A DNA stretch of 64,000 nt from Microbacterium sp. (GCF_036277215.1 NZ_DASUNI010000344.1:2031-66030); one strand, 5' to 3'; positions 1,795 through 36,112 are shown, counted from the first letter of the stretch. Notes: generated by a model not told the origin, from the sequence alone. A program made the numbers and translations.

Positions 1795-1808
1795 TATTGT
1801 TGACAATA
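1795..1808. promoter_or_regulatory. Palindromic operator candidate TATTGTTGACAATA (copy A of the TTGTTGACAAT motif)
   Basis: AT-rich palindrome ATTGT-TG-ACAAT in the divergent region between the oxidoreductase-IclR unit and the GntR gene. The exact 11-mer recurs at 20721, 21506 and 36102. Confidence 0.55.
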
Positions 1809-1857
1809 GTGGTTGGAGCCAGCGGCGGGTGCGCCGGGCGGAGCCGGGAGGAACTCG

Positions 1858-2520
1858 ATGTCGACGATCGTTGAGGATACGGGCGCCGCTGCCGACGCAT
1901 CGGAAGAGCGCGTCACCGACGTCATCCGCAGTGCCATCGTCCGCGGAGAGTACGCCCCCAACCAGCGCCTGATCGAGGCGGACCTGAGCGACACCTTCGC
2001 GGCCAGCCGGGCCACCGTGCGTACCGCGCTGCTCGAGCTCGCCAACGAGGGACTCGTCGAGCGACTGCCCAACCGCGGATCCCGCGTGCGGGCTATCTCC
2101 GTGGAGGAGGCGATCGAGATCCTCGAGGTGCGCATCGGAGTCGAGGGTCTGTGCGCCGCGAAGACCGCGGCGTCGGTCAGCGACGAGCAGGTCGAGGAGT
2201 TCCTGCGCCTCCGCCAGGACATGATCGAGGCCGTCGCCGACGGCGACCTGGTGGAATACTCGCGGCTGAACCAGCTGCTCGATCAGCGGGTGCGCGTGCT
2301 GAGCCGGCATACGACGGCATCCGACGTCCTCGGCAGGCTGCACGCGCAGAGCGTTCGCCACCAGTTCAAGTTGTCGTCGCGCCCGCAGCGCGCCAAGGTG
2401 TCGGTGCTCGAGCACGCCGCCATCATCGATGCGATCGTCGCGCGCGATCCCGATGCGGCAGAGCATGCCGTGCGGGTGCACCTGCAGAGCGTCATCGGCG
2501 CGCTGCGCGACGTGGCCTGA
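1858..2520 (+). CDS. GntR family (FadR/FCD subfamily) transcriptional regulator
   Basis: wHTH segment LIEADLSDTFAASRATVRTALLELANEGLVERLPNRGSRV followed by a helical FCD-like C-terminal domain. ATG at 1858 is preceded by GGGAGG. Confidence 0.85.
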   Translation: MSTIVEDTGAAADASEERVTDVIRSAIVRGEYAPNQRLIEADLSDTFAASRATVRTALLELANEGLVERLPNRGSRVRAISVEEAIEILEVRIGVEGLCAAKTAASVSDEQVEEFLRLRQDMIEAVADGDLVEYSRLNQLLDQRVRVLSRHTTASDVLGRLHAQSVRHQFKLSSRPQRAKVSVLEHAAIIDAIVARDPDAAEHAVRVHLQSVIGALRDVA

Positions 2521-2631
2521 CGCGAGGCCCGGTCCCGCGGCATCCGTCGAAGTTCGCGTCATCTCCCGCAGGAACACATGCGCGGGATGCCGCAAACTGC
2601 GACGAACAGCCGGTTGAACCCGGCGCGGCCG

Positions 2632-5078: not shown

Positions 5079-6605
<1,527 letters not shown>

Positions 6606-12195: not shown

Positions 12196-12984
12196 TCAGC
12201 CCTCCACGACACGCGCCCGCAGGCGCTGCACCACGTCGTCGTCGAGTCCCGCTTCGCGCAGCACCACGGCCGCGCCACCGCGCTCCTCGTCGAGGATCGC
12301 GAGCATCTCGACCATGGCGTCGTGCTCGGCGCCCAGCAGCGGGCTGACCGGTCCGCGACCCTCGGCCGCGGCGCGGAAGAACGCATCCGACTCCCCCATG
12401 AGGTGGCCGATGGAGGCGCTCACCCGCGCCATGATGCGGGGCACCGCCGTCGACGAGAGCGCATAGTCCGTCGCGATGTCCTCCTCGTCGGCGCCCAGCA
12501 CCGACAGCAGGGCGGCCGCGAAGATGCCGGTGCGGTCCTTGCCCGCGGCGCAGTGGAAAAGCACCCCGCCCGGGGCGTCTGCGATCGCGCGGATGCCCTC
12601 GGCCAGCGTGTCCGCCTCGGCCACGAGCGTCGCCGCGTAGTACTCCCCCACTGTCCTGGGCGTGGCCGAGTCCTCACGCAGGTGCTGCAGGAACTCGTCG
12701 GGTTCCGCACCGCCGCGCAGCAGCGACATCCGTCGGTAGGTCACGTCGTACCGGCCCAGCGGGCCGCGTCCGGTGTGTTCGGCCTCGGCGGGCGAGCGCA
12801 GATCGATGATGGTGCGGATGCCGCGGTCGAACAGCTCGCGCGCCTGCTCGTCGGGCACCGTGGACACGTCGTCGCTGCGGAAGAGGTGTCCCGGCGCGAT
12901 CACGCCGCCCTCGACGGCGATGCCGCCGAGATCCCGGAGGTTGTTCAGCGGGGTCTCTTCGATCGGTCGAGCCGGAGCGCTCAT
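12196..12984 (-). CDS. Tyrosine/dual-specificity phosphatase-like protein (CX5R active-site loop)
   Basis: HCAAGKDRTG P-loop and NLRDLGG N-terminal motif. Only the last 262 codons of the 565-aa track ORF are used. ATGA overlap with the upstream oxidoreductase. Confidence 0.75.
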   Translation of the reverse strand: MSAPARPIEETPLNNLRDLGGIAVEGGVIAPGHLFRSDDVSTVPDEQARELFDRGIRTIIDLRSPAEAEHTGRGPLGRYDVTYRRMSLLRGGAEPDEFLQHLREDSATPRTVGEYYAATLVAEADTLAEGIRAIADAPGGVLFHCAAGKDRTGIFAAALLSVLGADEEDIATDYALSSTAVPRIMARVSASIGHLMGESDAFFRAAAEGRGPVSPLLGAEHDAMVEMLAILDEERGGAAVVLREAGLDDDVVQRLRARVVEG

Positions 12985-14135
12985 GCGGGGGTCCTCTCGG
13001 GGGTGCGACGCCCGGGAGAGGCGGCGATGCGCGCGTCCAGGAACGCGTCGAATTCGGCGGGGTCGAGGGGCAGCGACACGGTGGCCCGTCTGGTCGACGA
13101 GAGCGCGGCGGCGGCGATGACCTCGACCGCATCGCGCGCCGCGCGCGCGGTGGTCAGCGGTTCGCCGTCCTCGGCCCACGCCGTCGCGAAGTCCGAGTAG
13201 ACCTCGGCGTGCGTGCCGCCCCCGTGGGGCACGGCGCGGCGCCAGTCCGATACCTCGTAGGCATCGAAGTGCCCGCCCGCCGTGGCCGCGAAGTCCCGGA
13301 AGTCCCCATGGCCCGAGCGGATGTCGAGGCCGTCCTGAGACAGCCGAAGCGAGCCTCCGGAGCCGAAGATCTCGGTGCGGTTCCCGTCGAGTCGCGCGGC
13401 GCTGGTGATGTGCACGGTCGCCGTGGCGCCGCCCGTCCATTCGAGCAGGACGTCGGCGGTGTCTTCGGTCTCGATCGGCTGCACGAGCGTGCGAAGGTTC
13501 GCGGTGACGGCATCCGGTCGCCCGAGGAGGTGGACGAGCACGTCGATGTCGTGCAGACCCTGGTTGAGCAGCACTCCTCCGCCCTCGCCCTGCCAGGTGC
13601 CGCGCCACGGCGTGTCCACGTAGTAGCTCGCGCGTTTGGGATAGCTGGCGGTCACGACGGCACGGTGGACGGCACCCAACTCCCCGGCCGCGATCCGGCG
13701 GCGTGCTTGCACCACCTCGGCGCGCAGGCGGTGCTGCTGCACGACGGCCACCTGCCGACCGGAGGCCTCGACGGCGGCGGTGAGCGCATCGATTTCGCTG
13801 AGGCGTGCGGCGAGGGGCTTCTCGACGAGCACCCAGAGCTGCGCGTCCAGGCAGCGCTGGACGAGCTCCGCGTGCAGGGGATGCGGTGCGCACACGACCG
13901 CGGCATCCGCATCGAGTGCGAGCAGTTCGTCGAGGGTGTCGGCGACCTTCCAGCCGTGCTCGGCGGCGACCTCGGCCGCGCGGGACGGTTCTGCGTCGAA
14001 GACCCCCACCACCTGGACGCCGGTGGCCAGGATCGCGGGGACGTGCGCCGCCTGGAAGATGTGCGATCCGGCCGCGATCACCACGACCCGCAGGCCTGCT
14101 GGATCGGACGGCGCGGGGTCTGCGCCGGCGGTCAC
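12981..14135 (-). CDS. Gfo/Idh/MocA family NAD(P)-dependent oxidoreductase
   Basis: LRVVVIAAGSHIF Rossmann start and the VLVEKPLA motif. The GTG at 14135 overlaps the ABC ATPase stop (GTGA). Confidence 0.8.
   Translation of the reverse strand: MTAGADPAPSDPAGLRVVVIAAGSHIFQAAHVPAILATGVQVVGVFDAEPSRAAEVAAEHGWKVADTLDELLALDADAAVVCAPHPLHAELVQRCLDAQLWVLVEKPLAARLSEIDALTAAVEASGRQVAVVQQHRLRAEVVQARRRIAAGELGAVHRAVVTASYPKRASYYVDTPWRGTWQGEGGGVLLNQGLHDIDVLVHLLGRPDAVTANLRTLVQPIETEDTADVLLEWTGGATATVHITSAARLDGNRTEIFGSGGSLRLSQDGLDIRSGHGDFRDFAATAGGHFDAYEVSDWRRAVPHGGGTHAEVYSDFATAWAEDGEPLTTARAARDAVEVIAAAALSSTRRATVSLPLDPAEFDAFLDARIAASPGRRTPERTPA

Positions 14136-15084: not shown

Positions 15085-15088
<4 letters not shown>
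14132..15088 (-). CDS. ABC transporter ATP-binding protein (DppF/OppF-like)
   Basis: Walker A GESGCGKTT, signature FSGGQCQR, Walker B VIVCDEP. ATGA overlap upstream. Confidence 0.9.
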
Positions 15089-16253
<1,165 letters not shown>

Positions 16254-16257
<4 letters not shown>

Positions 16258-19832: not shown

Positions 19833-19926
19833 TGACGTGCTCACTTTCGTGTGGGTGACGCGGGCTCCGCGTCGTCGGTGCAGGGTGTGAAGTTGTGATC
19901 GGGAACGGGATGCTGCGCGCTGCGTC

Positions 19927-21477: not shown

Positions 21478-21505
21478 GACTCGCTGATTCCGAAAGCGGA
21501 CAAAG

Positions 21506-22848: not shown

Positions 22849-22849
22849 C

Positions 22850-23671: not shown

Positions 23672-23699
23672 GCCCGCGTCGCCCGAGAGGAACCCCCGA

Positions 23700-24575: not shown

Positions 24576-24594
24576 GCCGGAAGGAACCACAGCT

Positions 24595-25326
24595 ATGCCC
24601 ATCTTCAACCGCGAGACCCTCAAGGCCGCCAACCTGCCCTGGGTCGAGATCGAGGACTTCGAGTTCATCCACCTCGGTCGCACGATGGTGACCAACAACC
24701 ACAAGGTCACCGCCGACGAGAACGGCCACGTCGCCTATTGGGGCTACTACCAGGACCGCCCGCTCGCCTCGACCCTGCGGATCGACCCGACCACCCCGAA
24801 GGACCGCATCACGGTGGTCAGCGGTCAGGTGCAGGTCGAGACCGACGCCGGCCGGGTGACGCTGCACAAGCGGGACTACTTCGACATCCCGGCATCCGGG
24901 GCCACGATCACCAACAGCGGCCAGTCGATGGCCGAGCTCGTGCGCGTGATGGGCCGCTGGGACCACACGGTGCGCAACGAGATCTGCATGTTCCGACCCG
25001 AGAATCCGTGCGACTACCACTACCACGACGGCGACGAGTACTGGGTGATCTTCCGCGGGCACTTCACCCTCGACTACGCCGGCATGCGCATCCCGGTCGG
25101 CCCCGGCGACCTCCTCGCCGCAGGCAAGGGCATCCCGCACGGAGCACTGGCGCCGGAGGAGACGATGAACGGGATCGTCATGGCCATGCCGCTCGAGGAC
25201 GCCAAACGCGACGGACACCTCAACCACAAGAACCAGGGCGAGCCCACGGTCGGCCGGGAGGTTCCCGAGTCGATCTGGGCCGACCTGCGCGCGCGCTCCA
25301 TCGGCGACGTCGTCGTCCCCGACTGA
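24595..25326 (+). CDS. Metal-binding cupin domain protein (paralog B)
   Basis: CDYHYHDGDEYWVIFRGHFTL is nearly identical to paralog A. GGAAGGA RBS. Confidence 0.7.
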   Translation: MPIFNRETLKAANLPWVEIEDFEFIHLGRTMVTNNHKVTADENGHVAYWGYYQDRPLASTLRIDPTTPKDRITVVSGQVQVETDAGRVTLHKRDYFDIPASGATITNSGQSMAELVRVMGRWDHTVRNEICMFRPENPCDYHYHDGDEYWVIFRGHFTLDYAGMRIPVGPGDLLAAGKGIPHGALAPEETMNGIVMAMPLEDAKRDGHLNHKNQGEPTVGREVPESIWADLRARSIGDVVVPD

Positions 25327-25335
25327 GAGAAGCCC

Positions 25336-26370
25336 ATGACCACCACGCATTCAGTACCCAGGGTCACCATCGGCCGCTCCGGAATCACCACCTCGCAGCT
25401 GTCGCTGGGCACGTGGGGCATCGGCAAGGCGGCCGCCGCCGCGACCATCGGCGACGACGAGACGATCATCACGGTGCTCGAGGCCGCCTTCGACGCCGGC
25501 ATCACCTACCTCGACTCGGCCGACATGTACGAGAACGAGGACCGTCTCGGCCGCCTTCTCAAGGAGGTGCGCAACAAGCCCGACGACCTGCTCATCGCGA
25601 CCAAGTACGGCCACGGCAAGCCCTTCACCGCCGACGGTGTGCGTCGCGCGGTCGAGCAGTCGCTGGCCTCGCTCGAGCTGGAGACCATCCCGCTCATGAT
25701 GCTCCACGACCCGCGCGGCGAGGAGGACATGGCCGAGGTCTTCGGTGCCGGCGGAGCGCTGGAGGGCCTGCGCGCCCTGCAGAGCGAGGGTCTCGTCGGC
25801 GCGATCGGCGTCGCCACCGGCACCATGCAGCCGCTGCACGCCGCGGTGGACTCCGACGAGTTCGACGTCATCCAGTTCCCGCGCCTGTACACGCTGGTGA
25901 ACCGCGCAGCGAAGACATCCGGACTGCTCGAGAAGGCCCGGGCCAAAGGCATCGGCACCCAGCTGGCCGCGCCGTTCACCGGCAACATCCTGGCGACCGG
26001 GGTGCGCGGAGTCGACAAGCCGCTGTACGCGTACTGGCCGGCGCAACCCGAGGTGATCGAGGCGGTCGGACGCATGCAGGACCGCGCCGACGAGCTCGGC
26101 ATCACGATCGCGCAGGCGGCGGTGGCCTACGTCGCCACCGAGCCGCTGATCGACGTCGCCGTCATCGGCGTGCGCACGCCGGGTGAAGTCGAGGAGAACG
26201 TCGAGTCGCTGTTCACCGGCGTCTCGCGCGACGACCTCGAGTCGATCGCCGACGCCGGCGCCGTGGACGAGAGCCTGATGGGCGGCCCTGACTTCGTGTG
26301 GCCCTTCCCGCTCGATCGCGTGCCCGACGAGCTCAAGGACGTCGTGTCGAAGAACGCGGGACACAAGTGA
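25336..26370 (+). CDS. Aldo/keto reductase (aldose 1-dehydrogenase-like subgroup)
   Basis: LSLGTWGIG, LDSADMYENE, ATKYGH and MLHDP motifs. Confidence 0.85.
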   Translation: MTTTHSVPRVTIGRSGITTSQLSLGTWGIGKAAAAATIGDDETIITVLEAAFDAGITYLDSADMYENEDRLGRLLKEVRNKPDDLLIATKYGHGKPFTADGVRRAVEQSLASLELETIPLMMLHDPRGEEDMAEVFGAGGALEGLRALQSEGLVGAIGVATGTMQPLHAAVDSDEFDVIQFPRLYTLVNRAAKTSGLLEKARAKGIGTQLAAPFTGNILATGVRGVDKPLYAYWPAQPEVIEAVGRMQDRADELGITIAQAAVAYVATEPLIDVAVIGVRTPGEVEENVESLFTGVSRDDLESIADAGAVDESLMGGPDFVWPFPLDRVPDELKDVVSKNAGHK

Positions 26371-27383
26371 CTGCGCACACGACGACCCTGGGCCGCACCG
26401 GTCTGACCACCTCGCGCATCGGCCTCGGCGCGTGGGGGCTGGAGAACCCCAACGGCTCGCACCCCGCCGTGCACGTGCTCGGCGAGGAGGCGGTGACCGG
26501 GATGCTGCGCGAGGCGTTCTCGCTCGGCATCACGCTTCTCGACTCGGCGGAGGTGTACGCCAACGAAGAGGCGCTCGGAAAGGCGCTTCGTTCGCTCGAC
26601 AACGTCCCCGACGACCTGATCGTCTCGACGAAGTTCGGGCACGGCAAAGGCTTCAGCGGCGCGCAGATCCGCGATTCCGTCGAACGGAGCCTCGACGCGT
26701 TCGCAATCGAGTCCATCCCGCTGTTCATGCTCCACGACCCGCGCGGCGACGCCGACCTCGAGGTCATCTACGCGCACGGCGGCGCCCTGCCCGAGCTGCG
26801 CCGACTGCAGGACGAGGGTCTGGTCGGCAGCGTCGGCATCGCGACCGGCACGCTCGCGCCGCTGCTGTCCGCGGTCGAGTCGGACGAGTTCGACGTGATC
26901 CAGTTCCCGCGGCTCTATACGCTCCTGAACGACTCGGCGAAAAGCTCCGGGCTGCTCGAGAAGGCGCGGGAGAAGAACATCGGGACGATCCTCACGTCGC
27001 CGTTCACCGGCAACATCCTGGGCACGGGCGTGCGCGGCGTGGACGACCCGCTCTACAGCTTCTGGGGCGCTCAGCCCGAGGTCGTCGCCGCCGTCGCCCG
27101 AATGGAGGATGCCGCCGAGGCGTCGGGCCTCGCGCTGCCGGAGGCGGCGATGGCCTATGCGCTGGCCGAACCGCTCATCGACGTGGTGGTGATCGGCGTC
27201 AAGAACATCGCGGAGCTGCGCCAGGACGTCGCCGTCCAGGACGCGGACATCGATCCCGAGACGCTGCAGGGCATCGCCGAAGCGGGCCGGGTCGACCAGC
27301 ACCTGCTGGGCGGGCCCGAGTACGTGTGGCCGTTCCCGATGGAGCGCATGCCCGCCGACCTGAAGGCCAAGCTGGGGCTCTAG
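26367..27383 (+). CDS. Aldo/keto reductase, tandem paralog
   Basis: Colinear with the preceding AKR (IGLGAWGL, LDSAEVYANE, STKFGH, MLHDP). GTG start overlaps the upstream TGA. Confidence 0.85.
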   Translation: MTAHTTTLGRTGLTTSRIGLGAWGLENPNGSHPAVHVLGEEAVTGMLREAFSLGITLLDSAEVYANEEALGKALRSLDNVPDDLIVSTKFGHGKGFSGAQIRDSVERSLDAFAIESIPLFMLHDPRGDADLEVIYAHGGALPELRRLQDEGLVGSVGIATGTLAPLLSAVESDEFDVIQFPRLYTLLNDSAKSSGLLEKAREKNIGTILTSPFTGNILGTGVRGVDDPLYSFWGAQPEVVAAVARMEDAAEASGLALPEAAMAYALAEPLIDVVVIGVKNIAELRQDVAVQDADIDPETLQGIAEAGRVDQHLLGGPEYVWPFPMERMPADLKAKLGL

Positions 27384-28903
27384 TGCACGTCGTCGTCGTG
27401 GGCGCCGGTTCGGCCGGCTGCGCGGTGGCGGGACGCCTCGCCGAGGGCGGCGCGTCCGTCACGCTGCTCGAGGCAGGTCCGGACTGGCGCAGCGAATCCT
27501 GTCCCGACGAGATCCGCCGCCCGCGCGACGACGTGTTCGCGTGGCGGGTCGACGGCCGGGCCCCGAGCTCGTTCGCCTACCCCGGCGTCGTCGCGCGGCG
27601 ATTCGAGGACGGCCCGATGGACCCGTACCTGCGGGGGTGGGGCGTGGGCGGCACGTCGTCGCTGAACGGACTGGTCACGGTACGGCCGCCCACGGACGAG
27701 TTCGACGAGTGGGAGGCGGGCGGCTGCGCAGGCTGGGGCTGGAGCGACGTGCTGCCGGTGTTCCGCCGCCTGGAGAACGATGTCGACTACGGCTCGCAGC
27801 CGTTCCACGGCAGGGGCGGGCCGGTGCCCGTGGTGCGCCGGCAGCAGTCCGAGTGGGGCTCCGGCGACCGGCTCCTGGCAGATGCGGCGTTCGCGGCCGG
27901 TCACGCATGGGAGCCCGACTACCACCGGCCCGGGGCCCTCGGCGTCTCGCGCACGGCCAGCAACATCCACCTCGGCGTCCGGGTCACCGCGTACGACGGC
28001 TATGTCGAGCCCTGGCGCGGCGAGGGACGCATCACCGTCGAGGCGGACGTCACGGCGTCCCGGGTCGTACTGCGCGGATCGCGCGCCCTCGGCGTCGAGA
28101 CCGTCGACCGCGCCGGTGCGGTCCACCTCACGGAGGGCGATCACATCATCCTCGCCGGCGGAGCGGCCGCGACCCCTGCGATCCTGCAGCGCTCGGGTAT
28201 CGGGCCCGCCGGCATGCTCGAGGCACTCGGCATCCCGGTCGTATCCGACCTGCCCGTGGGCGAGGGCATCCAGGATCATGTGGGGTTCTGGCTGCAGATC
28301 GCGCACGACGGTGCTGAGCCGGCCGCGAACGGAGCCCGCGGCAACGCGACGCTGCGCTACAGCTCGGGCCTGCCGCACTCGCGCTCCGGCGACCTGCTCG
28401 TCGTCGCCGCGAATCCCGCAACGGCCGACGCCGCCGAAGTGGCATTCGGGGTCAAACTTGCGTACTGCCTCAGCCGGGGCAGCTCGCGGATCGTGTCACG
28501 CGACCCGCGTGCGGCAGCGGACATCCGGATGAACCTGCTCGCCGACGGGGGCGACCGGGCACTGGCGCGCCACGCGGTGCGCTCCTCTGTGCGGATGCTG
28601 GCTCCGCACACCAGCTCGGTGCGCGATCGCAACGGCGACGTCGTCGATCCCGACTGGAGCGACGCCGATGTCGACGCGTGGCTGCGCGCCTCCGCCCGCG
28701 ACACCTCCCACCTCACAGGCGGTGCGCGGATGGGTGACTCGGACCACGACACGACGGTGGTCGACCCTCGGCTCCGGGTCCTCGGAGTCGACGGCCTCAC
28801 GGTCGCCGACCTGTCGGTCTGCCCGATCGTCCCGCGCGCGAACACCTACCTCACGGCGGTGATGATCGGCGAGCGTGCGGCCGACTTCGTCCTGGGACGG
28901 TGA
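27383..28903 (+). CDS. GMC family FAD-dependent oxidoreductase
   Basis: N-terminus VVVVGAGSAGCAVAGRLAE (GxGxxG), GGTSSLNG, and C-terminal HLTGGARMG...VVDPRLRV.GVDGL.VADLSV. GTG start overlaps the upstream TAG. The 823-aa track ORF is rejected. Confidence 0.85.
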   Translation: MHVVVVGAGSAGCAVAGRLAEGGASVTLLEAGPDWRSESCPDEIRRPRDDVFAWRVDGRAPSSFAYPGVVARRFEDGPMDPYLRGWGVGGTSSLNGLVTVRPPTDEFDEWEAGGCAGWGWSDVLPVFRRLENDVDYGSQPFHGRGGPVPVVRRQQSEWGSGDRLLADAAFAAGHAWEPDYHRPGALGVSRTASNIHLGVRVTAYDGYVEPWRGEGRITVEADVTASRVVLRGSRALGVETVDRAGAVHLTEGDHIILAGGAAATPAILQRSGIGPAGMLEALGIPVVSDLPVGEGIQDHVGFWLQIAHDGAEPAANGARGNATLRYSSGLPHSRSGDLLVVAANPATADAAEVAFGVKLAYCLSRGSSRIVSRDPRAAADIRMNLLADGGDRALARHAVRSSVRMLAPHTSSVRDRNGDVVDPDWSDADVDAWLRASARDTSHLTGGARMGDSDHDTTVVDPRLRVLGVDGLTVADLSVCPIVPRANTYLTAVMIGERAADFVLGR

Positions 28904-28943: not shown

Positions 28944-29612
28944 TCAATCCACGCTCGCCGCGGTCGCGTCGCGGATGCCGCGGAGCGCATCGAGGACGTT
29001 GTCGCGATGCCGGTACGCCGCCTCGAGCGCTCCGGCCTCGTCGCCGGCGATCACGGCCTCAACGACCCGTTCGTACTCGTGCATGGAGTCCACCCGACGA
29101 TCCGGCAGCTGGTACGGGTACCAGTTGATCCGCACCTGGCTCTGCAGCGTCTCGATGATGCGGGAGGCGGTCTGGTGACCGCTGATGCGGCGGATGACGC
29201 GCGAGATCTCCGAGTTCGCCGCTGCGGTGCGCGCACGGTCACCGTCCTCGACCGAGGAGCGCAACTCTTCCAGCAACGCGGTCAGCTCGGCGCGGTCGGC
29301 ATCGGTCACGCGCGTCGCCGCGCGGCCCGCGCACATCGCCTGCAGCGAGAGGCGCACCTCGGTCGACTCGATCGCCTCGTCGATCGAGACGGGACGCACC
29401 CGGGCGCCGCGATTGGCCTCGCGTTCGACGAGGCCGAGGGCTGCGAGTTCGATCAGCGCCCCTCGCACCGCGTTGCGCGACGTGCGGTATCGGGCGCACA
29501 GCTCGACCTCGATCAGACGCTCGCGAGGGTGGTAGACGCCTTCCCTGATGTCGTGCGCGATCAGGTCGACGAGCTCAGCCTTGGGCTGCGGCACTTCGGC
29601 CAGGCTGGTCAT
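28944..29612 (-). CDS. GntR family (FCD subfamily) transcriptional regulator
   Basis: LIEVELCARYRTSRNAVRGALIELAALGLVEREANRGARV wHTH plus an FCD-like domain. Confidence 0.85.
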   Translation of the reverse strand: MTSLAEVPQPKAELVDLIAHDIREGVYHPRERLIEVELCARYRTSRNAVRGALIELAALGLVEREANRGARVRPVSIDEAIESTEVRLSLQAMCAGRAATRVTDADRAELTALLEELRSSVEDGDRARTAAANSEISRVIRRISGHQTASRIIETLQSQVRINWYPYQLPDRRVDSMHEYERVVEAVIAGDEAGALEAAYRHRDNVLDALRGIRDATAASVD

Positions 29613-30701: not shown

Positions 30702-32279
30702 CTACTCCGTGCGGAAGAGCTTCTCCGGCAGGATCGAGCCTCGTCCGAACGCCTCGAAGCCCTGCACCTCGGCGCTGTGGAAGAAGATCCGATGATCGAA
30801 CCCGAAGGAGTAGATCGGCACTTCGTCGACGTAGATCTGCTGCACCTGTGCGAGCGCGGCAGCCTTCTCCTCCTCGCTCGTGGCCGTACGCAGCTCGTCC
30901 AGCGCTGCGGTCATCTCCGGGCTGGAGGAGTTCTGGATGTTGTCCGTGCCGTCCTTCTCGAAGAGGTTCGTGAAGGTGGACGCGACCGGGTTGATGTCGT
31001 AGATGCCCAAGTAGAACGTGATGTCGAAGTCGTCATTGCCCTGCGTGCGCAGACGCCAGTCCTGGATCTGCACCTGCTCGATGTCGACGGTGACGCCCTC
31101 GAGCTGCTGGAGCGTGAGCTGCACGTACTCCGCCGACCGGATGCTCTCCGGAATCGCCGCCGGGACGATCGTGAACGACATGTCCACTCCGTCGGCGATC
31201 AGCTCGTCGACGAGCTTCTGAGCCTCCTCGAGATCCGGCTCGGGCAGTCCGAGCGCCGCGTCGTAGTACGGCGACTCATCGGAGAACAGCGTGGTCGAGC
31301 CGACCTGCTCCGGGTCCGACAGCAGCGTCTGCACCAGCTCGGTCGGCTCCAGCGCGAGGGCGACGGCCTTCCGGGCGCGCACGTCATCGAACGGTGCGCG
31401 CGTGTTGTTGAAGACGAGGTGACGGAAACCGCCGTTCTCGACGGTGAACATCTCGAACCGGTCGTCGTCGGCGTAGTCGCGGAAGTCGGAGGAGAACCCG
31501 TTCATCAGGTCGGCGCTGCCGCCGGCGATGGTCTCGACGCGCTGCGACGGGTCGCCGACGGTGCGGTAGTGCAGTGCGTCGTAGACGGGCTTGCCCAGCG
31601 CGTAGTCGGGGTTGGCCTCGAGGTCCTCGCCGATCGCGGGATCCTGGTGAGTGAGGATGAACGGACCGGCGCCGACCGGCTCGACGTACTCATCCGCTTG
31701 GAGCGCCGTCGGAGAGGCGACGAACTGCATCAGTTCGGCGATCTGCTCGTCGAGCACGGGGTTGGCGGCCTTCGCCGTGACGGCGAGTGTCACCTCGTCC
31801 ACGACCTCGGTGGTGAAGGACTGCGCGAGCGCCATCGTCGGCGAACCGGTGGCGGGGTCGGCGTTGCGGTCCCAGTTGAATTTGACCGCGGCGGCGTCGA
31901 AGGCCGTGCCGTCGGTGAAGGTGATGCCGGGCCGCAGCGTGAGGGTCCAGGTGGTGCCGCCGTCCTCGGTCGTGAAGCTCTCCGCCAGGCTCGGGACGAG
32001 TTCTCCGCTCTGGTCCACGTAGAACAGCTGGCCGTACACCGCGACGAGCCGGTCGGTGGTGACCCCCGGCAGGGTGCCGAAGAAGGCGAGCGCGGGATCC
32101 CACGTGCCCATTCCCGCGGCGGACATGATGGTGATCTCGCCGCCCTCGGCGGGTTCACCGGTCGCGCCGCCGTCACTGTTTCCACCGCCTCCTCCGGAGC
32201 ACGCCGCCAGCAGCAGTGCGAGCGAAGTGCCCGCACCGATTAGGGCGAGTCGCCAGGGGTTCCTCTTCATCGAGTGCAT
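30702..32279 (-). CDS. ABC transporter substrate-binding lipoprotein, family 5 (orphan paralog of 18240-19832)
   Basis: Lipobox LLLAACSG. Colinear, roughly half-identical by eye to the SBP at 18240-19832. No permease or ATPase genes are adjacent. Confidence 0.85.
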   Translation of the reverse strand: MHSMKRNPWRLALIGAGTSLALLLAACSGGGGGNSDGGATGEPAEGGEITIMSAAGMGTWDPALAFFGTLPGVTTDRLVAVYGQLFYVDQSGELVPSLAESFTTEDGGTTWTLTLRPGITFTDGTAFDAAAVKFNWDRNADPATGSPTMALAQSFTTEVVDEVTLAVTAKAANPVLDEQIAELMQFVASPTALQADEYVEPVGAGPFILTHQDPAIGEDLEANPDYALGKPVYDALHYRTVGDPSQRVETIAGGSADLMNGFSSDFRDYADDDRFEMFTVENGGFRHLVFNNTRAPFDDVRARKAVALALEPTELVQTLLSDPEQVGSTTLFSDESPYYDAALGLPEPDLEEAQKLVDELIADGVDMSFTIVPAAIPESIRSAEYVQLTLQQLEGVTVDIEQVQIQDWRLRTQGNDDFDITFYLGIYDINPVASTFTNLFEKDGTDNIQNSSSPEMTAALDELRTATSEEEKAAALAQVQQIYVDEVPIYSFGFDHRIFFHSAEVQGFEAFGRGSILPEKLFRTE

Positions 32280-32312
32280 GAGTGCCTTTTCCCGTTCCGA
32301 TCTCAGGCCGGA

Positions 32313-33761
32313 TCAGACGTTGATCGCGACGTACTTCTCCTCGAGGAACTCGAGGATGCCTTCGGAGCTGCCCTCGCGGCCCAGCCCGCTCTGCTTGGTG
32401 CCGCCGAAGGGGGCGGCGGGGTCGCTCAGCACACCGCGGTTGACCGCGACCATGCCGACATCGAGTCTCAGCGCCGCGCGCGTCGCGTCCTGCTCCGGAC
32501 CGAAGACGTAGGCGACCAGCCCGAACTCGGTGTCGTTGGCCATCCTCACCGCGTCATCGACGTCGGTGTAGGAGACGACCGCCGTGACGGGCCCGAAGAT
32601 CTCGGTGCGGGTGATGCTGTCGCCGTGCGTCACCCCGGTGAGCAGGGTCGGCTCGATGAACGCTCCCCCGCCGAGCGCGTCCCCTCCGGTGACGACGGTC
32701 GCCCCCTCGGCGACGGCCGTGCCGACGAGGTCCGCGACCTTGTCGCGCTCCGCCACCGAGACGAGCGCCCCGAGCGTGTTCTGCCGGTCGAGGCCGGCGC
32801 CCGTGCGCACCCGGGCCAGCTCGGCGCTCATCCGCGAGACGAACTCGTCGTGCAGGCTCGCGTGCACGTAGAACCGGTTGGCCGCCGTGCAGGCCGAGCC
32901 GCCGTTGCGCATCTTCGCGGCGAGCGCACCGGGGACGGTCACGTCGAGGTCGGCGCCTGGCAGCACGAGCACGGGCGCGTTCCCGCCCAGCTCCATCGAG
33001 GTGCTCACGACGGTGTCGGCGCAGGCGTGCAGCAGCTCGCGACCCACCTCGGTCGAGCCGGTGAACGACAGCTTGCGCACGGCGGGGTGGCTGATCATGC
33101 GCGCCACGTTCGGCCCGGTGGGCACCGGTGTGACGAGGTTGACCACACCGTCCGGCACGCCGGCGCGACGCAGCACGTCCACCACGTACGCCGCCGTCAG
33201 CGGAGTCTCGCGCGCGGGCTTGAGGATCGTCGTGCACCCGGCCGCCAGCGCGGGCGCGAGCTTGCGGGTCGCCATCGCGGCGGGGAAGTTCCAGGGGGTG
33301 ATCAGCAGCGCCACGCCGATCGGCTGACGGGTGACGACGATCCGCTTGTCGCCCGCCGGCGCGAGCCGGTAATCGCCCGGCACGCGGACGGCCTCTTCGG
33401 CGAACCAGCGGAAGAACTCCGTCGCATAGCCCGCTTCGGCGATCGCGTCGGGCCAGGCCTTGCCGTTCTCGCGGACCATGATCTCGGCGAAGTGCTCCTT
33501 CTCCTCGCGCAGGATCTCGAACGCGCGGTAGAGGATCTCGCTGCGCGCCCGCGGGCTCGTCGCCGCCCATGCGGGGAAGGCGCGCTCGGCCGCCGCGACG
33601 GCATCGTCGCAGTCCTGCTCGGTCGCTGCAGCGAACTCCGCGACGGTCGAGCCGTCCGCCGGATCGATCACGTCGAATCGCCTGCCCTCACCGCCGGGGC
33701 GCCAGACGCCGTCGATGAAGAGGTCGGCGATATACGTGCGGGTGCTCGTCGTCGCAGTCAT
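32313..33761 (-). CDS. NAD(P)+-dependent aldehyde dehydrogenase (succinate-semialdehyde dehydrogenase-like)
   Basis: ITPWNFP, FTGST.VG, ELGGNAP and catalytic-Cys-region GSACTAANR motifs. Confidence 0.9.
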   Translation of the reverse strand: MTATTSTRTYIADLFIDGVWRPGGEGRRFDVIDPADGSTVAEFAAATEQDCDDAVAAAERAFPAWAATSPRARSEILYRAFEILREEKEHFAEIMVRENGKAWPDAIAEAGYATEFFRWFAEEAVRVPGDYRLAPAGDKRIVVTRQPIGVALLITPWNFPAAMATRKLAPALAAGCTTILKPARETPLTAAYVVDVLRRAGVPDGVVNLVTPVPTGPNVARMISHPAVRKLSFTGSTEVGRELLHACADTVVSTSMELGGNAPVLVLPGADLDVTVPGALAAKMRNGGSACTAANRFYVHASLHDEFVSRMSAELARVRTGAGLDRQNTLGALVSVAERDKVADLVGTAVAEGATVVTGGDALGGGAFIEPTLLTGVTHGDSITRTEIFGPVTAVVSYTDVDDAVRMANDTEFGLVAYVFGPEQDATRAALRLDVGMVAVNRGVLSDPAAPFGGTKQSGLGREGSSEGILEFLEEKYVAINV

Positions 33762-33786
33762 GATTTCTCGCTTCGTTCGAGGGGTG

Positions 33787-35016
33787 TCAGGAGGACAGGC
33801 GGGCGCGGTCGCCGACGAGCGCGGCGTCGACGATCCGCCCGATGAAGTCGGCGTCGGCAGGCACTGGGCTGATCGCCACGAGGCGTCCGACCTGCAGCGT
33901 CAGGGTCACGATGCGCTCGCGATCCGCCGGGGTCAGCCCGAGGTCGGTGAGCGCGACCGGCAGTCCGATGCGCGCGCAGAGTCCCGCGACCGCATCGACG
34001 ACGCGTTGCGCCGCGGCATCCGATTCGCCCTCATCGGGCTCGAGGACGCCCATTGCCCCGCCGAGCGCGGTCAGCCGCGATCCGATCGCGGGCAGGCACG
34101 CCTGCAGCACATAGGGAAGCAGCGCACCGGTGCCCAGGCCGTGCGGGGTCTTGGTCATCGCCCCGATCGGGTACTGGATCGCGTGCGAGAGGTGGGTGCC
34201 GGCAGACCCGAACGCCATCCCCGCCAGCAGGCTGCCGTACGCCATCGCCTCTCGTGCGTCCCGGTCGGCGGGGCTCTCGACGGCCGTCGGCAGGGAGCGG
34301 AAGATCGCGCCGGCCGCCTCGAGGGACAGGGGGTCGGTGAGCACGTTGCGGCCGATGAAGACGGGCAGGCGTGCGCCGCGATCGACTTCGAGGGATGCCG
34401 CGGTGTAAGACTCGACGGCGTGCACGAAGGCGTCGATGCCCGAGTGGGCGGTGACGCCCCTCGGGGCACCGATCGACAGCTCGGGGTCGACGATCCCCAC
34501 CCGCGGGACGAGGAATGGGCTCGAGACTCCGACCTTCAGGTCCCGCGCTGGATCGGACACGACGGCGACCGGGGTGACCTCCGACCCGGTGCCGGCCGTG
34601 GTCGGGACCGCCACGAGCGGCACGACCGGGCCGGGGACGGCGTTCTCTCCGTAGTAGGCGGAGAGGCTGCCGCCGTGGCTGACCAGCAGTGCGATCAGCT
34701 TCGCCGCGTCCAGGGCGCTGCCTCCGCCGTAGCCGACGATCACATCGGGGGCGAAGGACCGTGCGAGAGCACCGGATGCCTCGACCACGTCGACCGGAAG
34801 CTCGGGTGGCACGTCGGTGTGCACCTGTACGTCGAGGCCGCGGTCCGCCAGTCCCGCGACGACATCGTGGAACTCGGGTGTCGTGGCAAGGAAGGGGTCG
34901 GCGACGACGAAGACACGCCGCCCCAGCGCCGCGACGGCAGCGGGGATGCCCGCACGCACCCCGTAGCCGAAGCGCACGTCGTCGGGCAGTCTCAGCACGC
35001 CCAGTCCGGAGCTCAC
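33787..35016 (-). CDS. Iron-containing (group III) alcohol dehydrogenase
   Basis: GYGGGSALDAAK, VAVPTTAGTGSEVT and HSGIDAFVHAVE motifs. GTGA overlap with the upstream gene. Confidence 0.85.
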   Translation of the reverse strand: MSSGLGVLRLPDDVRFGYGVRAGIPAAVAALGRRVFVVADPFLATTPEFHDVVAGLADRGLDVQVHTDVPPELPVDVVEASGALARSFAPDVIVGYGGGSALDAAKLIALLVSHGGSLSAYYGENAVPGPVVPLVAVPTTAGTGSEVTPVAVVSDPARDLKVGVSSPFLVPRVGIVDPELSIGAPRGVTAHSGIDAFVHAVESYTAASLEVDRGARLPVFIGRNVLTDPLSLEAAGAIFRSLPTAVESPADRDAREAMAYGSLLAGMAFGSAGTHLSHAIQYPIGAMTKTPHGLGTGALLPYVLQACLPAIGSRLTALGGAMGVLEPDEGESDAAAQRVVDAVAGLCARIGLPVALTDLGLTPADRERIVTLTLQVGRLVAISPVPADADFIGRIVDAALVGDRARLSS

Positions 35017-36077
35017 GATGGGTCCTCGTTTCGGTCTGCGACGGCGGGGTCGACGGCTTCGGACAGCTCATGCAGGCGGGCCCACACGTCGGCGGACAGA
35101 GCGACACCCTCTGCACAGGATCGATCGCGGGCCGCCCTGGCGCGGTCGCCCGGCACGGTGACGGTGCTGCCGTCGGCCCCGCTCCCGCGGATCAGCGCGA
35201 AGTAGTCGCCGAGCGCGGTGCGCGTGTCGGATCCGGCGAACGCCACGGGGTCGATGGCGATGATGACATCCCCCTTGGTCACCTCGGAGTCGGCGTCGAG
35301 CGTGCCGTGCACGTCGGGACCGAGCGCGGTGCCGGTGAGCGCGCCGACGATCGCGCCGAACGCGAGACCGAGCGCATAGCCCTTCGCTCCCCCGAACGGC
35401 GAGATGGCGCCCTCGGCGGCTTCCGCCGCGTCGGTGGTGCGATGCCCGGCGGCATCCACCGCCCAGCCGTCGGGCAGCGTCATGCCCTTGGCGCGATAGT
35501 CCAGGATCTTGCCCGCCGAGACGGCGCCGGTCGACATGTCCACCGCCAGGTCGCCGCCGGACGCCGGCACCCCGATCGCGATGGGGTTGGTGCCCAGCAG
35601 CGCGCCCACACCGCCCCACGGGTGCACGAGCCCCTCGGTGGACGACAGCATGAGGCCGACCAGTCCGACGGCTGCGAGCTGCTCCATGTACGGAGCGAGG
35701 ATGCCGAGGTGGTGCGTCCGATGCAGTGCGGCGACCGCGACACCGGTCTCGGGCAGGCGCCCGCGGAGCGCCGCGATCGCCTGGTACGCGACGACCGGCC
35801 CGAACCCGCGAGCGCCGTCCACGGTCAGGGCCGCGGCAGCGGTCCACTGCAGCTCGGGCTGCGAAGCCGGGTCGATCAGGCCCCTCTCGATCCGAGCGAC
35901 CAGGACGTCCAGCCGCCGCAGACCGTGCGACGGATGACCGCGCAACTCCGCCGCGACCAGGTGATCGGCCTGGATCCGCGCGTGCTCGGTCGTCGCCCCG
36001 CGCCGCGTCAGCGCACGCGCGGCGAGATCGCGGAGCTCCTGCGCATCGACGCGCACCGCGGAGGGATCACCCGACAT
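35013..36077 (-). CDS. Ldh_2 family (malate/L-lactate/sulfolactate-type) NAD(P)H oxidoreductase
   Basis: GHPSHGL, GTNPIAIGVP and PFGG.KGYALG motifs of the Ldh_2 family. Confidence 0.8.
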   Translation of the reverse strand: MSGDPSAVRVDAQELRDLAARALTRRGATTEHARIQADHLVAAELRGHPSHGLRRLDVLVARIERGLIDPASQPELQWTAAAALTVDGARGFGPVVAYQAIAALRGRLPETGVAVAALHRTHHLGILAPYMEQLAAVGLVGLMLSSTEGLVHPWGGVGALLGTNPIAIGVPASGGDLAVDMSTGAVSAGKILDYRAKGMTLPDGWAVDAAGHRTTDAAEAAEGAISPFGGAKGYALGLAFGAIVGALTGTALGPDVHGTLDADSEVTKGDVIIAIDPVAFAGSDTRTALGDYFALIRGSGADGSTVTVPGDRARAARDRSCAEGVALSADVWARLHELSEAVDPAVADRNEDPS

Positions 36078-36101
36078 ATGTTCAACCTTCCTGTGGACAT
36101 C

Positions 36102-36112
36102 ATTGTCAACAA
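36102..36112. promoter_or_regulatory. TTGTTGACAAT motif (copy D, minus-strand orientation)
   Basis: Exact 11-mer in the 53-nt divergent region between the Ldh_2 operon and the IclR gene. Confidence 0.5.

Follow-up and report, generated by a model that had tools for sequence, protein, structure and literature searches.

The window, by which we mean the whole 64,000-nucleotide stretch of DNA analysed here, carries four putative transcription units, three genes for paralogous GntR regulators and two IclR genes, together with four intergenic copies of a short palindrome, referred to below as sites A to D (Table 1).

Table 1. Features of the window, with the basis of each assignment (coordinates counted from the first nucleotide of the window)
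Feature	Coordinates	Strand	Basis
Unit 1: g2 (NAD_binding_2/DUF1932 dehydrogenase), then IclR-a	141..1761	-	Pfam
Site A, predicted operator ATTGTTGACAAT	1796..1807	+	exact match; 30.2 bits
GntR-1, VanR-group FCD GntR regulator	1858..2520	+	Pfam GntR+FCD; AF2 model; orthologues adjoin motif
Putative decayed operator ATTGTAACCAGA, only left half-site intact, upstream of galB-like operon	6579..6590	+	alignment with orthologous intergenic regions
Unit 2: cupin, SBP_bac_5, two permeases, two ATPases, Gfo/Idh/MocA, Y_phosphatase3	12196..20640	-	Pfam; conserved synteny
Predicted cupin-ABC operon promoter: -35 TTGACG, 18-nt spacer, -10 TATGCT	20687..20716	-	promoter scan
Site B, predicted operator ATTGTTGACAAT, between cupin-ABC operon and GntR-2	20721..20732	-	exact match; 27.6 bits
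GntR-2, paralogous FCD GntR, 36% identical to GntR-1	20812..21477	+	Pfam
Site C, predicted operator GTTGTTGACAAT, upstream of UPF0261 (MarK-like) operon	21505..21516	+	exact 11-mer; 22.6 bits
Predicted UPF0261 operon promoter: -35 TTGACA, 18-nt spacer, -10 TAGCGT	21521..21550	+	sequence
Unit 3: UPF0261 (MarK-like kinase), two PEP_hydrolase-like proteins, cupin, two aldo/keto reductases, GMC oxidoreductase	21619..28903	+	Pfam
GntR-3, third paralogue	28944..29612	-	Pfam
Unit 4: Ldh_2, Fe-ADH, ALDH, SBP_bac_5	30702..36077	-	Pfam
Predicted IclR-b promoter: TGGACA, 18-nt spacer, TACGAT	36094..36123	+	promoter scan
Site D, predicted operator GTTGTTGACAAT, between Ldh_2 (-) and IclR-b (+)	36102..36113	-	exact 11-mer; 18.4 bits
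IclR-b regulator	36131..36892	+	Pfam; promoter geometry
Borderline site upstream of ALDH g36, left half-site intact	36921..36940	+	16.4 bits

The 11-mer TTGTTGACAAT occurs in four exact copies in the 64,000-nt window, at 1797-1807 (+), 20721-20731 (-), 21506-21516 (+) and 36102-36112 (-), and, as an earlier note on this DNA had pointed out, all four lie in intergenic promoter regions, each adjoining a GntR or IclR gene as assigned by Pfam. The same note held that so A/T-rich an 11-mer should not recur by chance, which is borne out here: the four copies compare with an expectation of 0, there being no match in any of 100 dinucleotide-preserving shuffles of the window, and at up to two mismatches the window holds 11 matches versus 1.95 expected. 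Intergenic DNA makes up 6.6% of the window and accommodates 6/7 matches with at most two mismatches. The complete element is a 12-mer, (A/G)TTGTTGACAAT, which reads ATTGTTGACAAT at sites A and B and GTTGTTGACAAT at sites C and D, and which is embedded in a palindrome of about 20 bp, CAnnATTGT-TG-ACAATnnTG, whose flanks are symmetric, C(-4) and G(+4). Across 15 sites of the window's own lineage and 38 sites of relatives, positions 3-12 hardly vary, and G4 and C9 are invariant in 38/38 of the latter. A matrix derived from the relatives only gives its four highest window scores to A, B, C and D, in that order (Table 1; shuffle maximum 15.6 bits), and the motif has no occurrence in the remaining 45 or so intergenic regions of the window. 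Operators of the FadR subfamily are A/T-rich palindromes with TKGT/ACMA boxes, following the general rule NyGTNxACNy (PMC4494728). The TTGT and ACAA boxes of ATTGT-TG-ACAAT fit TKGT/ACMA, and the predicted operator co-occurs with a GntR/FCD gene, which supports the earlier proposal of a palindromic core of the FadR-like GntR type. The GT-AC spacing of the motif is 2 nt; in the subfamily a 3-nt spacing is commoner than 2, and additional half-sites often lie 7-12 nt from the centre (PMC4494728). Placement is also typical of FadR-subfamily operators, with A, B and D in divergent regulator/operon regions and C directly downstream of GntR-2.

Site A lies between the start codons of g2 (1761, minus strand) and GntR-1 (1858), and comparison of 21 orthologous GntR-1/g2 intergenic regions shows it to be the sole conserved block. 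Site B is kept at the orthologous position in six loci (L001, L002, L082, L085, L086 and L087), and site C reads (A/G)(A/T)TGTTGACAAT in all relatives, an invariant block flanked by variable sequence. The predicted -35 elements of the cupin-ABC and UPF0261 promoters each begin 4 nt past the respective site, B or C. This common architecture (operator, 4 nt, TTGAC(G/A), 18 nt, -10), already described in the earlier note, is retained in all orthologues, the geometry at C being of class II with a -10 block that is invariant among close relatives. Site D, on the other hand, falls within the spacer of the predicted IclR-b promoter, and its orthologue in L087 (388-399) is likewise found in the Ldh_2/IclR intergenic region. 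IclR-b is thus probably itself under the control of operator D, and since its ATG at 36131 follows the -10 by 7 nt, the transcript may lack a leader.

Sites B, C and D stand at orthologous positions with diverged flanks in Microbacterium, Luethyella and metagenome relatives, and at loci with this footprint the GntR-2 orthologues are 54-73% identical, M. thalassium and Luethyella included. The anchor around which the motif recurs is formed by the g2 homologues: their loci (518 kb) contain 16 exact and 24 one-mismatch 12-mers, 40 in all, compared with 0 and 0 in 624 kb of unrelated high-GC control loci. In 21 loci the motif is adjacent to a GntR-1 orthologue. Among 80 loci scored for the two, 21 have both, 10 the motif only, 9 GntR-1 only and 40 neither (odds ratio 9.3, Fisher p = 1.4e-5, a value that overstates independence because some loci are closely related). 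Of the 10 motif-bearing loci in which the GntR-1 gene is undetectable, several cover little sequence or, as the layout of L171 and L172 suggests, probably end just before the gene; 8/9 loci with GntR-1 that lack such a motif carry a site with two mismatches. The site is also found within the g2/GntR-1 intergenic region of the isolates Marmoricola (36.4 bits) and Amycolatopsis, and further sites precede gal-type, ABC or LigM operons in Marmoricola, Amycolatopsis and M. schleiferi, while L169, a distant cluster of the GntR-2 clade, carries the symmetric variant sites ATCGTCAACGAT. By these criteria the motif is a conserved, predicted cis-regulatory site.

GntR-1, whose orthologues adjoin the motif in metagenome loci and isolates alike, is the best candidate for the cognate protein. 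In GntR-1, GntR-2 and GntR-3, PF00392 and PF07729 both score above cut-offs, giving an N-terminal GntR winged HTH and a C-terminal FCD domain. The AF2 model of GntR-1 (pLDDT 87.8) has as its nearest Foldseek neighbours the VanR-group proteins 3IHU, 7U5Q, PmiR, Atu1419, AlkR, McbR and TM0439, with FadR itself far down the ranking (E about 1e-4). It contains six long helices and, where confidence is lowest, a helical turn of five residues (166-170), which leaves the helix count (six in the VanR group, seven in the FadR group) ambiguous. Residues R51, R55, E40 and G74 align with the DNA-contacting R45, R49, E34 and G66 of Atu1419, and all four are invariant in 24 homologues; at the effector-domain metal site, which in Atu1419 consists of Asn/Asp and three His, N138, H186 and H208 align with Atu1419 N137, H192 and H214, and position 142 is Asp in GntR-1 and His in at least 90% of homologues. 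The model places GntR-1 among the VanR-group FCD regulators, with the guanine-reading arginine retained. A VanR orthologue of the Caulobacter/Acinetobacter type was considered for it and rejected, given the lack of a vanAB-type (Rieske) gene among window genes 1-38, 42 and 44 (Pfam scan) and an operator that differs at four inner positions. GntR-2 orthologues are 54-87% identical, and sites B and C flank GntR-2 in every context examined. The upstream region of GntR-3 (29613-29739) carries no motif in the window; the corresponding region carries sites in L082 and L086. The DNA-reading residues are identical across all three paralogue clades and so do not single out one paralogue. The operator would be shared by GntR-1 and GntR-2, and perhaps by GntR-3.

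One of the closest characterised systems is that of the Agrobacterium fabrum repressor Atu1419 ('VanR'), an FCD GntR protein of the VanR group (PDB 6Z74, 6ZA3; PMC7797058). Its architecture resembles that of GntR-1, and several identical short A/T-rich palindromes lie in the promoters of a lignin-related aromatics cluster with a THF-dependent O-demethylase, where they overlap the -10 (PMC7797058). GT and AC boxes are 2 nt apart in both systems, each half-site has one essential guanine, read in Atu1419 by the conserved Arg45 and presumably by its counterpart here, and autoregulation from a divergent promoter is matched by the gene arrangement in the window. On the other hand, the Atu1419 operator is the 10-bp ATGTATACAT rather than ATTGTTGACAAT, the protein is proteobacterial and only about 28% identical to GntR-1, and its tetramer, DNA looping and effector (N5,N10-methylene-THF) are experimental, whereas the window system is known from sequence. 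VanR of Caulobacter crescentus recognises VanO, a 12-bp perfect inverted repeat, ATTGGATCCAAT, unique to the target region in that genome (PMC2175322). It shares 8/12 positions with the window motif, the outer ATTG...CAAT being identical and the inner four bases different. One operator lies immediately before the -35, as at B and C, and one over the -10; the GntR repressor gene is again divergent and aromatic O-demethylation is controlled. The Caulobacter target is, however, Rieske-type vanAB, whereas the window demethylases are THF-dependent LigM/DesA-type enzymes, and two sites at one promoter compare with at least four promoters over 35 kb. E. coli FadR likewise binds an A/T-rich palindrome in divergent regulator/operon regions as a winged-HTH dimer, the state we would expect here, but its effector domain has seven helices, and its site is 17 bp long, with GT and AC separated by 3 nt. 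The known ligM/desA regulators of Sphingobium sp. SYK-6, DesR (MarR) and DesX (IclR), are reported to act on LigM/DesA O-demethylase genes and gallate or protocatechuate meta-cleavage genes as in the window (PMC6888825; bioRxiv 10.1101/2020.07.27.224295); as described there, their regulator families and operators differ, so that they are functional analogues only.

We consider it probable, with some confidence, that the 12-mer (A/G)TTGTTGACAAT is the shared operator of paralogous VanR-group FCD GntR repressors. A GntR dimer, possibly a dimer of dimers, would read both TTGT/ACAA boxes, with the conserved helix-3 arginine (R51 in GntR-1) contacting the invariant G4 and its symmetric partner C9. 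At B and C, a protein bound 4 nt ahead of the -35 would be positioned to block RNA polymerase; at D it would occupy the promoter spacer, at A an overlap with the g2 -10 is probable, and in many relatives the operator's own TTGACA would double as the -35. The net effect would be that at least four transcription units are repressed until a small-molecule effector, probably either an aromatic acid derived from lignin or a by-product of O-demethylation of the tetrahydrofolate type, frees the protein. In this Microbacteriaceae-like lineage the operator would additionally control the GntR-2 cluster with its MarK-like kinase, ABC transporter, phosphatase and Ldh_2.

The sign of regulation could also differ between sites, with GntR activating or acting dually at B, C and the gal-type operons, where it binds directly ahead of the -35, and repressing only over core promoter elements. 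The operators at B and C extend from about -41 to -52 and are centred near -46, and the single central site at B appears about equidistant from two predicted divergent promoters. E. coli FadR activates fabA from about -40, and FadR-type proteins can activate from about -46, so that the sign at B and C is uncertain. Activation or dual action is nevertheless unlikely in our view: the VanR-group relatives characterised so far are repressors, an operator of the Caulobacter Pvan promoter occupies this very position directly ahead of the -35, the extended 20-bp footprint would abut the -35, and class I sites coincide with the -35, which suits repression only.

It is very unlikely that the element belongs to an IclR-family regulator (IclR-a, IclR-b or homologues) instead of GntR. 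Site D does adjoin IclR-b, site A heads the g2-IclR-a unit, and an IclR gene is located in or near the motif-preceded operon in seven loci, but in eleven others the motif and a GntR-1 orthologue occur without an IclR gene, and L082-84, where 20 kb contain no IclR gene, retain both B and C and have acquired another site near GntR-3. By eye, ATTGTTGACAAT matches neither GKTYCRYW3-4RYGRAMC nor TGRAACAN1-2TGTTYCA, whereas it follows the GntR TKGT/ACMA rule. An element read by RNA polymerase itself, as an extended -35 or UP-like sequence of a strong or alternative-sigma promoter, is suggested by the canonical -35 hexamer TTGACA inside the motif; at 15 relatives' sites TANNNT follows this hexamer after 17-18 nt (17 nt in 14/15), and there the hexamer is the -35. 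At 0/4 window sites, on the other hand, is it correctly spaced (16-19 nt) from a TANNNT -10: B and C own a separate -35 and D sits in a spacer. Furthermore, in Luethyella its orientation is reversed with respect to the adjoining -35, it is palindromic with symmetric variants and symmetric flanks, neither the window's other intergenic regions nor the high-GC controls contain it, and it tracks one regulator family. Since TTGACA is a -35 at relatives' sites and at no window site, the hexamer seems to belong to the design of the operator rather than to explain it, and a pure promoter element is extremely improbable.

Turning back to a shared GntR operator, the view that the four units form one regulon and functional system is supported by predicted sites conserved at orthologous positions, by co-occurrence with GntR/FCD genes and by units that are fused or adjacent in relatives: the ABC operon of L082-84 includes Ldh_2 and Fe-ADH, and in Luethyella the Gfo and phosphatase genes are fused. 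The earlier note had left the substrate nameless, missing the conserved core that accompanies the motif across Actinobacteria. This core consists of the neighbouring LigM/gallate-pathway genes, g2 and GntR-1, so that the linked units very probably act on an aromatic compound derived from lignin. GntR-1 and its operator, with g2, LigM-type O-demethylases and gallate-type lower-pathway genes (PIG-L-family, CHA aldolase, OMA tautomerase and extradiol dioxygenase), make up the ancestral module, which is widely conserved. The 12-base palindrome is most likely a GntR-type repressor site linking lignin-derived aromatic catabolic clusters in soil actinobacteria; the type of genetic switch is itself well known, and an operator of this kind for lignin aromatics would be a new example. 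The product of g22 in unit 3 matches MarK (9MPY, E=3e-55) and has a native lysine at the position of Tm-1 K20 and MarK E16K (PMC12624787). More tentatively, and with clear doubt, three VanR-type GntR paralogues could read one operator and co-regulate the LigM/gallate pathway with a phosphorylation-dependent catabolic module. The components of this module would be the MarK-like UPF0261 kinase, in which the ATP-site lysine is native, two PEP-hydrolase-like TIM barrels, two cupins, AKRs and a GMC oxidase, together with Ldh_2/ADH/ALDH and a Gfo/Idh/MocA dehydrogenase that is fused to Y_phosphatase3 or lies next to it. In that case an operator common to three paralogues, each probably with its own effector pocket, would let several signals gate one promoter set, and the module would give Actinobacteria a new route, from kinase to phosphatase, for a phenolic compound derived from lignin; the absence of a biotin carboxylase would set it apart from the acetovanillone pathway.

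The weaker copies proposed earlier are present as sequences but appear mostly not to be operators, two being misassigned or unsupported and the third (36914) borderline. The copy placed at 44317-44327 scores 9.4 bits as a 12-mer (44317-44328), inside the shuffle range, and is without the invariant G4. The one given as 36915-36925 has true coordinates 36914-36924, and in its best register (36921-36940) it reaches a borderline 16.4 bits versus the shuffle maximum of 15.6; upstream of the g36 orthologue, L082 has a perfect site and L087 none. The region at 6591-6601 is not a degenerate copy but a conserved -35: orthologous regions upstream of the galB-like operon carry ATTGTAGACAAT, 3 nt and TTGACC, and the window retains this TTGACC at 6594-6599, with the orthologous operator position at 6579-6590, where the putative decayed operator lies.

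The repeated element is probably an operator, new and well conserved, of VanR-type GntR regulators that are themselves uncharacterised. The earlier note had claimed that the 11-mer TTGTTGACAAT occurs in four exact intergenic copies (sites A-D) and that this recurrence is not due to chance, and each of these points holds: all four copies lie between genes in a codon-usage gene model annotated by Pfam, and none of 100 dinucleotide-preserving shuffles contained a match. In the window, with a G+C content of about 69%, 11 matches with up to two mismatches to the 11-mer are found against 1.95 expected, and six of the seven matches to the 12-mer pattern ATTGTNNACAAT at the same tolerance are intergenic, intergenic DNA making up 6.6% of the window. 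When a weight matrix is built from relatives only, sites A-D are the top four matches in the window (30.2, 27.6, 22.6 and 18.4 bits), the shuffles reaching a maximum of 15.6 and a mean of maxima of 8.1. Set in one orientation, the sites share a 12-mer core, (A/G)TTGTTGACAAT. In 15 non-redundant sites from five genomes of the window lineage, TGTTGACAAT is essentially invariant and the flanks carry G at +4 in all 15 and C at -4 in 12; the pattern is the same among 38 unique sites from wider relatives, with positions 4 and 9 of the core (G4 and C9) invariant in 38 of 38. The near-invariant core, the C(-4)/G(+4) flanks and the constancy of G4 and C9 thus define the element as a roughly 20-bp palindrome, CAnnATTGT-TG-ACAATnnTG.

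Coordinates and settings of the operator sites and associated features (gN, Nth gene of the window gene model; L numbers, fetched loci of relatives; window coordinates unless a locus is named)
Feature	Coordinates	11-mer start (strand)	Left side or setting	Right side
Site A	1796-1807	1797 (+)	g2 NAD_binding_2/DUF1932 dehydrogenase (-), then IclR-a	GntR-1 (+)
Site B	20721-20732	20721 (-)	cupin / SBP_bac_5 ABC / Gfo-Idh-MocA / Y_phosphatase3 operon (-)	GntR-2 (+)
Site C	21505-21516	21506 (+)	GntR-2	UPF0261 / 2 PEP_hydrolase-like / cupin / 2 AKR / GMC operon (+)
Site D	36102-36113	36102 (-)	Ldh_2 / Fe-ADH / ALDH / SBP_bac_5 operon (-)	IclR-b (+)
Recurring position 1, g2 loci			GntR-1 orthologue/g2 interval; counterpart of site A	
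Recurring position 2, g2 loci			5' of PIG-L-family / RraA-like / PrpF / extradiol dioxygenase operon	
Recurring position 3, g2 loci			5' of Liv-type ABC transporter divergent from LigM-type O-demethylase genes	
Marmoricola endophyticus			ATTGTCAACAAT, 36.4 bits, g2/GntR-1 region; second site before PIG-L/RraA operon	
Amycolatopsis sp.			three sites, one ATTGTTGACAAT-17 nt-TAGCGT ahead of RraA/PrpF/dioxygenase genes	
Microbacterium schleiferi			site between Liv-type ABC operon and GCV_T/IclR operon	
g2, NAD_binding_2/DUF1932	976-1761			
Lignin-aromatic island	2632-12186 and 44793-48065			
g13, Y_phosphatase3	12196-12984			
Predicted cupin-operon promoter element TATGCT	20687-20692			
Predicted GntR-2 promoter element TACACT	20761-20766			
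g22-g24	21619-24575			
Predicted IclR-b -10 TACGAT, ending 7 nt ahead of ATG	36118-36133			
Fused Gfo/Idh/MocA + Y_phosphatase3	L086 1564-3483		Luethyella okanaganae	
Ldh_2 + Fe-ADH after phosphatase gene	L082-L084 543-2392		within ABC operon	
Double site	L115 5904-5936		5' of g2 homologue	

Two other origins of the repeat have to be weighed. Exact copies might descend from a recent segmental duplication or a mobile repeat, and this is ruled out, since the flanks of A and D have nothing in common with those of B and C outside the element and the orthologous position of each site is retained from genus to genus. The motif also embeds TTGACA, which could be read as a generic -35, and in class I, one of two clean classes of promoter geometry that stand out among 55 unique sites, it is indeed the -35, followed by a spacer of 17-18 nt (17 nt in 14 of 15 sites) and TANNNT. 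The 15 class I sites are all in relatives, and for the window sites a generic -35 is ruled out by promoter geometry scans. Class II comprises 11 sites, B, C and all their orthologues among them, and has a separate TTGAC(A/G) -35 that starts 4 nt past the operator, then a 17-18-nt spacer and a -10 (TATGCT at B, TAGCGT at C), which bears out the common architecture proposed earlier for these two sites. Site D falls between the -35 and -10 of the predicted IclR-b promoter, TGGACA/TACGAT, within its 18-nt spacer. Given the geometry of the two classes and the position of D, the embedded TTGACA is part of the operator's design, allowing it to coincide with or adjoin the -35, and not the cause of the repeat.

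At site A, the promoter scan returned no consensus promoter, and the right half-site (T/A)ACAAT may itself serve as the g2 -10. Site B is approximately equidistant (about -41 to -52) from two predicted divergent promoters, that of GntR-2, where TACACT is conserved, and that of the cupin operon; owing to this position, one protein bound there could control both. The close spacing of the predicted IclR-b -10 and the ATG suggests that the IclR-b mRNA is leaderless.

Sites B, C and D were traced through increasingly distant genomes. When genomes were scanned with the UPF0261 protein, the only close relatives were two Actinomycetota MAGs, at 93% and 90% identity, and B and C are retained exactly in each; the intergenic regions of L001 and L002 are 91-96% identical to the window and too close for strong footprinting, and more diverged orthologues were thus used. 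Homologues of GntR-2 recovered by search form a series of decreasing identity, with Microbacterium thalassium (60%) and Luethyella okanaganae (54%) at its far end. The gene cluster is the same as in the window in four GntR-2 orthologue contexts (54-71% identical), and all four carry the 12-mer, exact or with a single mismatch, at the orthologous B and C positions within diverged flanking DNA. The Ldh_2/IclR intergenic region of L087 contains an orthologue of site D. Luethyella carries the element in inverted orientation with respect to the neighbouring -35, which argues for its recognition as a palindrome. The divergent region between GntR-3 and an amidohydrolase gene contains the motif in L082 (ATTGTTGACAAT) and Luethyella (TATGTTGACAAT) and no copy in the window (29613-29739); regulon membership therefore differs by lineage.

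A metagenome scan with g2 yielded 80 loci (518 kb in total) with 16 exact and 24 one-mismatch copies of the 12-mer, and a control of 47 high-GC loci (624 kb, chosen for distant UPF0261 homologues) contained neither exact nor one-mismatch copies. Annotation of the g2 loci with the window proteins reveals three recurring motif positions. In these 80 loci, presence of the motif (one mismatch or none) is associated with a GntR-1 orthologue (21/10/9/40, odds ratio 9.3, Fisher p = 1.4e-5, a value that is optimistic because some of the loci are mutually related), and eight of the nine GntR-1 loci lacking such a site have one with two mismatches. All GntR matches in these loci are best matched to GntR-1 and none to GntR-2 or GntR-3. 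When 21 GntR-1/g2 intergenic regions (regulator identity 44-90%) are aligned, attgtc(a/t)acaat is the sole conserved block besides ribosome-binding sites and start codons. The uncharacterised dehydrogenase g2 and its homologues in L089-L174 accompany GntR-1 and the operator more constantly than any other gene, and they occur with gallate-pathway genes in three actinobacterial families.

In terms of which protein reads the operator, the assignment of the half-sites to a FadR-like GntR type is upheld: the motif is an A/T-rich palindrome with TKGT/ACMA boxes, as the FadR-subfamily rule requires, and the GTTGAC box past B and C agrees with the extra, weaker half-site that this subfamily often has 7-12 nt from the site centre (PMC4494728). 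It matches neither of two IclR consensus types (PMC8222616). The GntR-1 model is confident (pLDDT 87.8) and has its nearest solved folds among VanR-group FCD proteins (3IHU, 7U5Q, PmiR, Atu1419 'VanR', AlkR 'VanR', McbR and TM0439), FadR itself being a far lower-ranked match. In Atu1419, Arg45 contacts the essential guanine of each half-site, and binding is lost when the G-C pair is mutated (PMC7797058). Its counterpart in GntR-1 is R51, which, together with R55, E40 and G74, is invariant in 24 homologues from three paralogue clades, in agreement with the invariance of G4 and C9. Comparison of HTH residues does not separate the paralogues for B, C and D, the R-x-x-x-R and N-R/K-G positions being common to all three clades, and NCBIfam returns no equivalog for the three GntRs, the top match, phnR_burk, falling far under its cut-off. 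The GntR-1 clade goes with the motif where the fetched loci contain no GntR-2-type cluster, and in L169, which has a distant GntR-2-clade regulator and a rearranged UPF0261/ABC/Ldh_2 cluster, a symmetric variant, ATCGTCAACGAT, lies in the intergenic DNA 5' of the regulator's own gene and before the cupin-ABC-UPF0261 operon. These observations point to use of this motif family by both clades, and an operator common to the paralogues is thus favoured.

The best-supported mechanism would be repression by promoter occlusion, lifted by an effector, with Caulobacter VanR and Atu1419 as precedents. The former has two perfect ATTGGATCCAAT repeats, one directly before the -35 box and the other over the -10 (PMC2175322), and the latter, a tetramer that loops DNA and has N5,N10-methylene-THF as its effector, has three identical ATGTATACAT palindromes over -10 boxes (PMC7797058). 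Looping between B and C, which are 784 bp apart, or cooperative binding would be possible. Activation from the class II position is a conceivable alternative to occlusion. In L115, two perfect ATTGTTGACAAT copies stand in opposite orientation 21 bp (two helical turns) apart with a third partial copy after them, an arrangement that suggests cooperative or tetrameric binding.

The proposal of one regulon is supported and can be extended to LigM/gallate-type genes and to g2/GntR-1. Above curated NCBIfam cut-offs, g6 and g46 are vanillate/3-O-methylgallate O-demethylase LigM, g8 is 4-carboxy-4-hydroxy-2-oxoadipate (CHA) aldolase, g9 is 4-oxalomesaconate (OMA) tautomerase and g45 is PurU (formyltetrahydrofolate deformylase); we take the PIG-L-family g7 to resemble GalB, the gallate-pathway hydratase of Pseudomonas putida. 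The regulon core is the breakdown of methoxylated lignin-derived aromatic acids, through LigM/DesA-type demethylation, THF recycling and gallate-/protocatechuate-type meta-cleavage. The lignin-aromatic island comprises the LigM-type g6 and g46, the MTHFR-like g44, PurU, the GalB-like PIG-L-family protein, the CHA aldolase and the OMA tautomerase, as well as a 2-hydroxyacid dehydrogenase and an HpcH aldolase. The island also includes g4, a DesA/LigM-like O-demethylase under both cut-offs, and g10, a type I extradiol dioxygenase just under the catechol 2,3-dioxygenase cut-off.

Within the B/C/D cluster, g22 is a full-length homologue (9MPY, E = 3e-55) of MarK, an ATP-dependent kinase for aromatic monomers and the first UPF0261 protein with a demonstrated catalytic activity (PMC12624787). 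It has a native lysine at the Tm-1 K20 / MarK E16K position (ATP-site K21); after it come two PEP_hydrolase-like TIM-barrel proteins, paralogues of each other, and the operon divergent from it contains the phosphatase g13. Luethyella encodes Gfo/Idh/MocA and Y_phosphatase3 as a single fused protein of 639 aa, suggesting that they act on the same metabolite. In L082-L084, Ldh_2 and Fe-ADH come directly after the phosphatase gene, overlapping, inside the ABC operon and with no IclR gene, which shows that the operons to the left of B and of D function as a single unit in some genomes. As in the window, the cluster adjoins g11 and g12 orthologues in M. thalassium and Luethyella. The MarK homology, the native lysine, the phosphatase, the Ldh_2/Fe-ADH placement and the g11/g12 adjacency tie the cluster to the aromatic pathway and are consistent with phosphorylation, transformation and dephosphorylation of a lignin-derived phenolic compound. 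The pairing of g22 and g13 resembles the kinase/phosphatase logic of the acetovanillone pathway; that pathway is ruled out as the identity of the cluster because no biotin carboxylase is present.

A literature search for the motif and its regulator found no description, its coverage being incomplete and a prior description, for example in RegPrecise-type databases, being possible; searches by motif strings returned only unrelated primer and construct sequences. The known regulators LigR and GalR are proteobacterial and of families other than GntR. The same is true of DesR and DesX (PMC6888825; bioRxiv 10.1101/2020.07.27.224295). If this were confirmed, an operator and a regulator would be assigned for the first time to LigM-type O-demethylation and gallate-type ring cleavage in Actinobacteria. 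Furthermore, an argument of 'guilt by shared operator' would place a conserved, function-unknown cluster with a homologue of the recently discovered MarK within lignin-derived aromatic catabolism, and the predicted operator/repressor pair, compact and high in information, would be comparable as a part to the widely used VanR/VanO in biosensors and inducible promoters for high-GC hosts. No new principle of regulation is revealed.

The degenerate copies listed by the earlier note fared differently. The copy at 6591-6601 is reinterpreted: L118, L124 and L136 have ATTGTAGACAAT, 3 nt and TTGACC 5' of the PIG-L (galB-like) operon, and the window has ATTGTAACCAGA (6579-6590) and then an identical TTGACC at the same position, so that 6591-6601 is the -35 region beside an operator decayed to a half-site. 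Control of this operon may have been rewired, a LysR gene, g5, being located nearby among the demethylase genes. As an operator, 44317-44328 is rejected, scoring 9.4 bits with the invariant G4 replaced. The third, upstream of the ALDH gene g36, survives as a borderline site (16.4 bits in its best register, 36921-36940), and g36 orthologues have a perfect upstream site in L082 and none in L087. Also 5' of g36, at 36917-36930, is a perfect 6-2-6 inverted repeat, TGACAA-AA-TTGTCA, which overlaps a TTGACA hexamer and holds the TTGT/ACAA half-sites of the main motif in the opposite, tail-to-tail order; another regulator (IclR-b or PaaX) could bind there, or the repeat could reflect an alternative mode of binding. 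The left side of site C is overlapped by a similar ACAA-nn-TTGT arrangement (ACAAAGTTGT).
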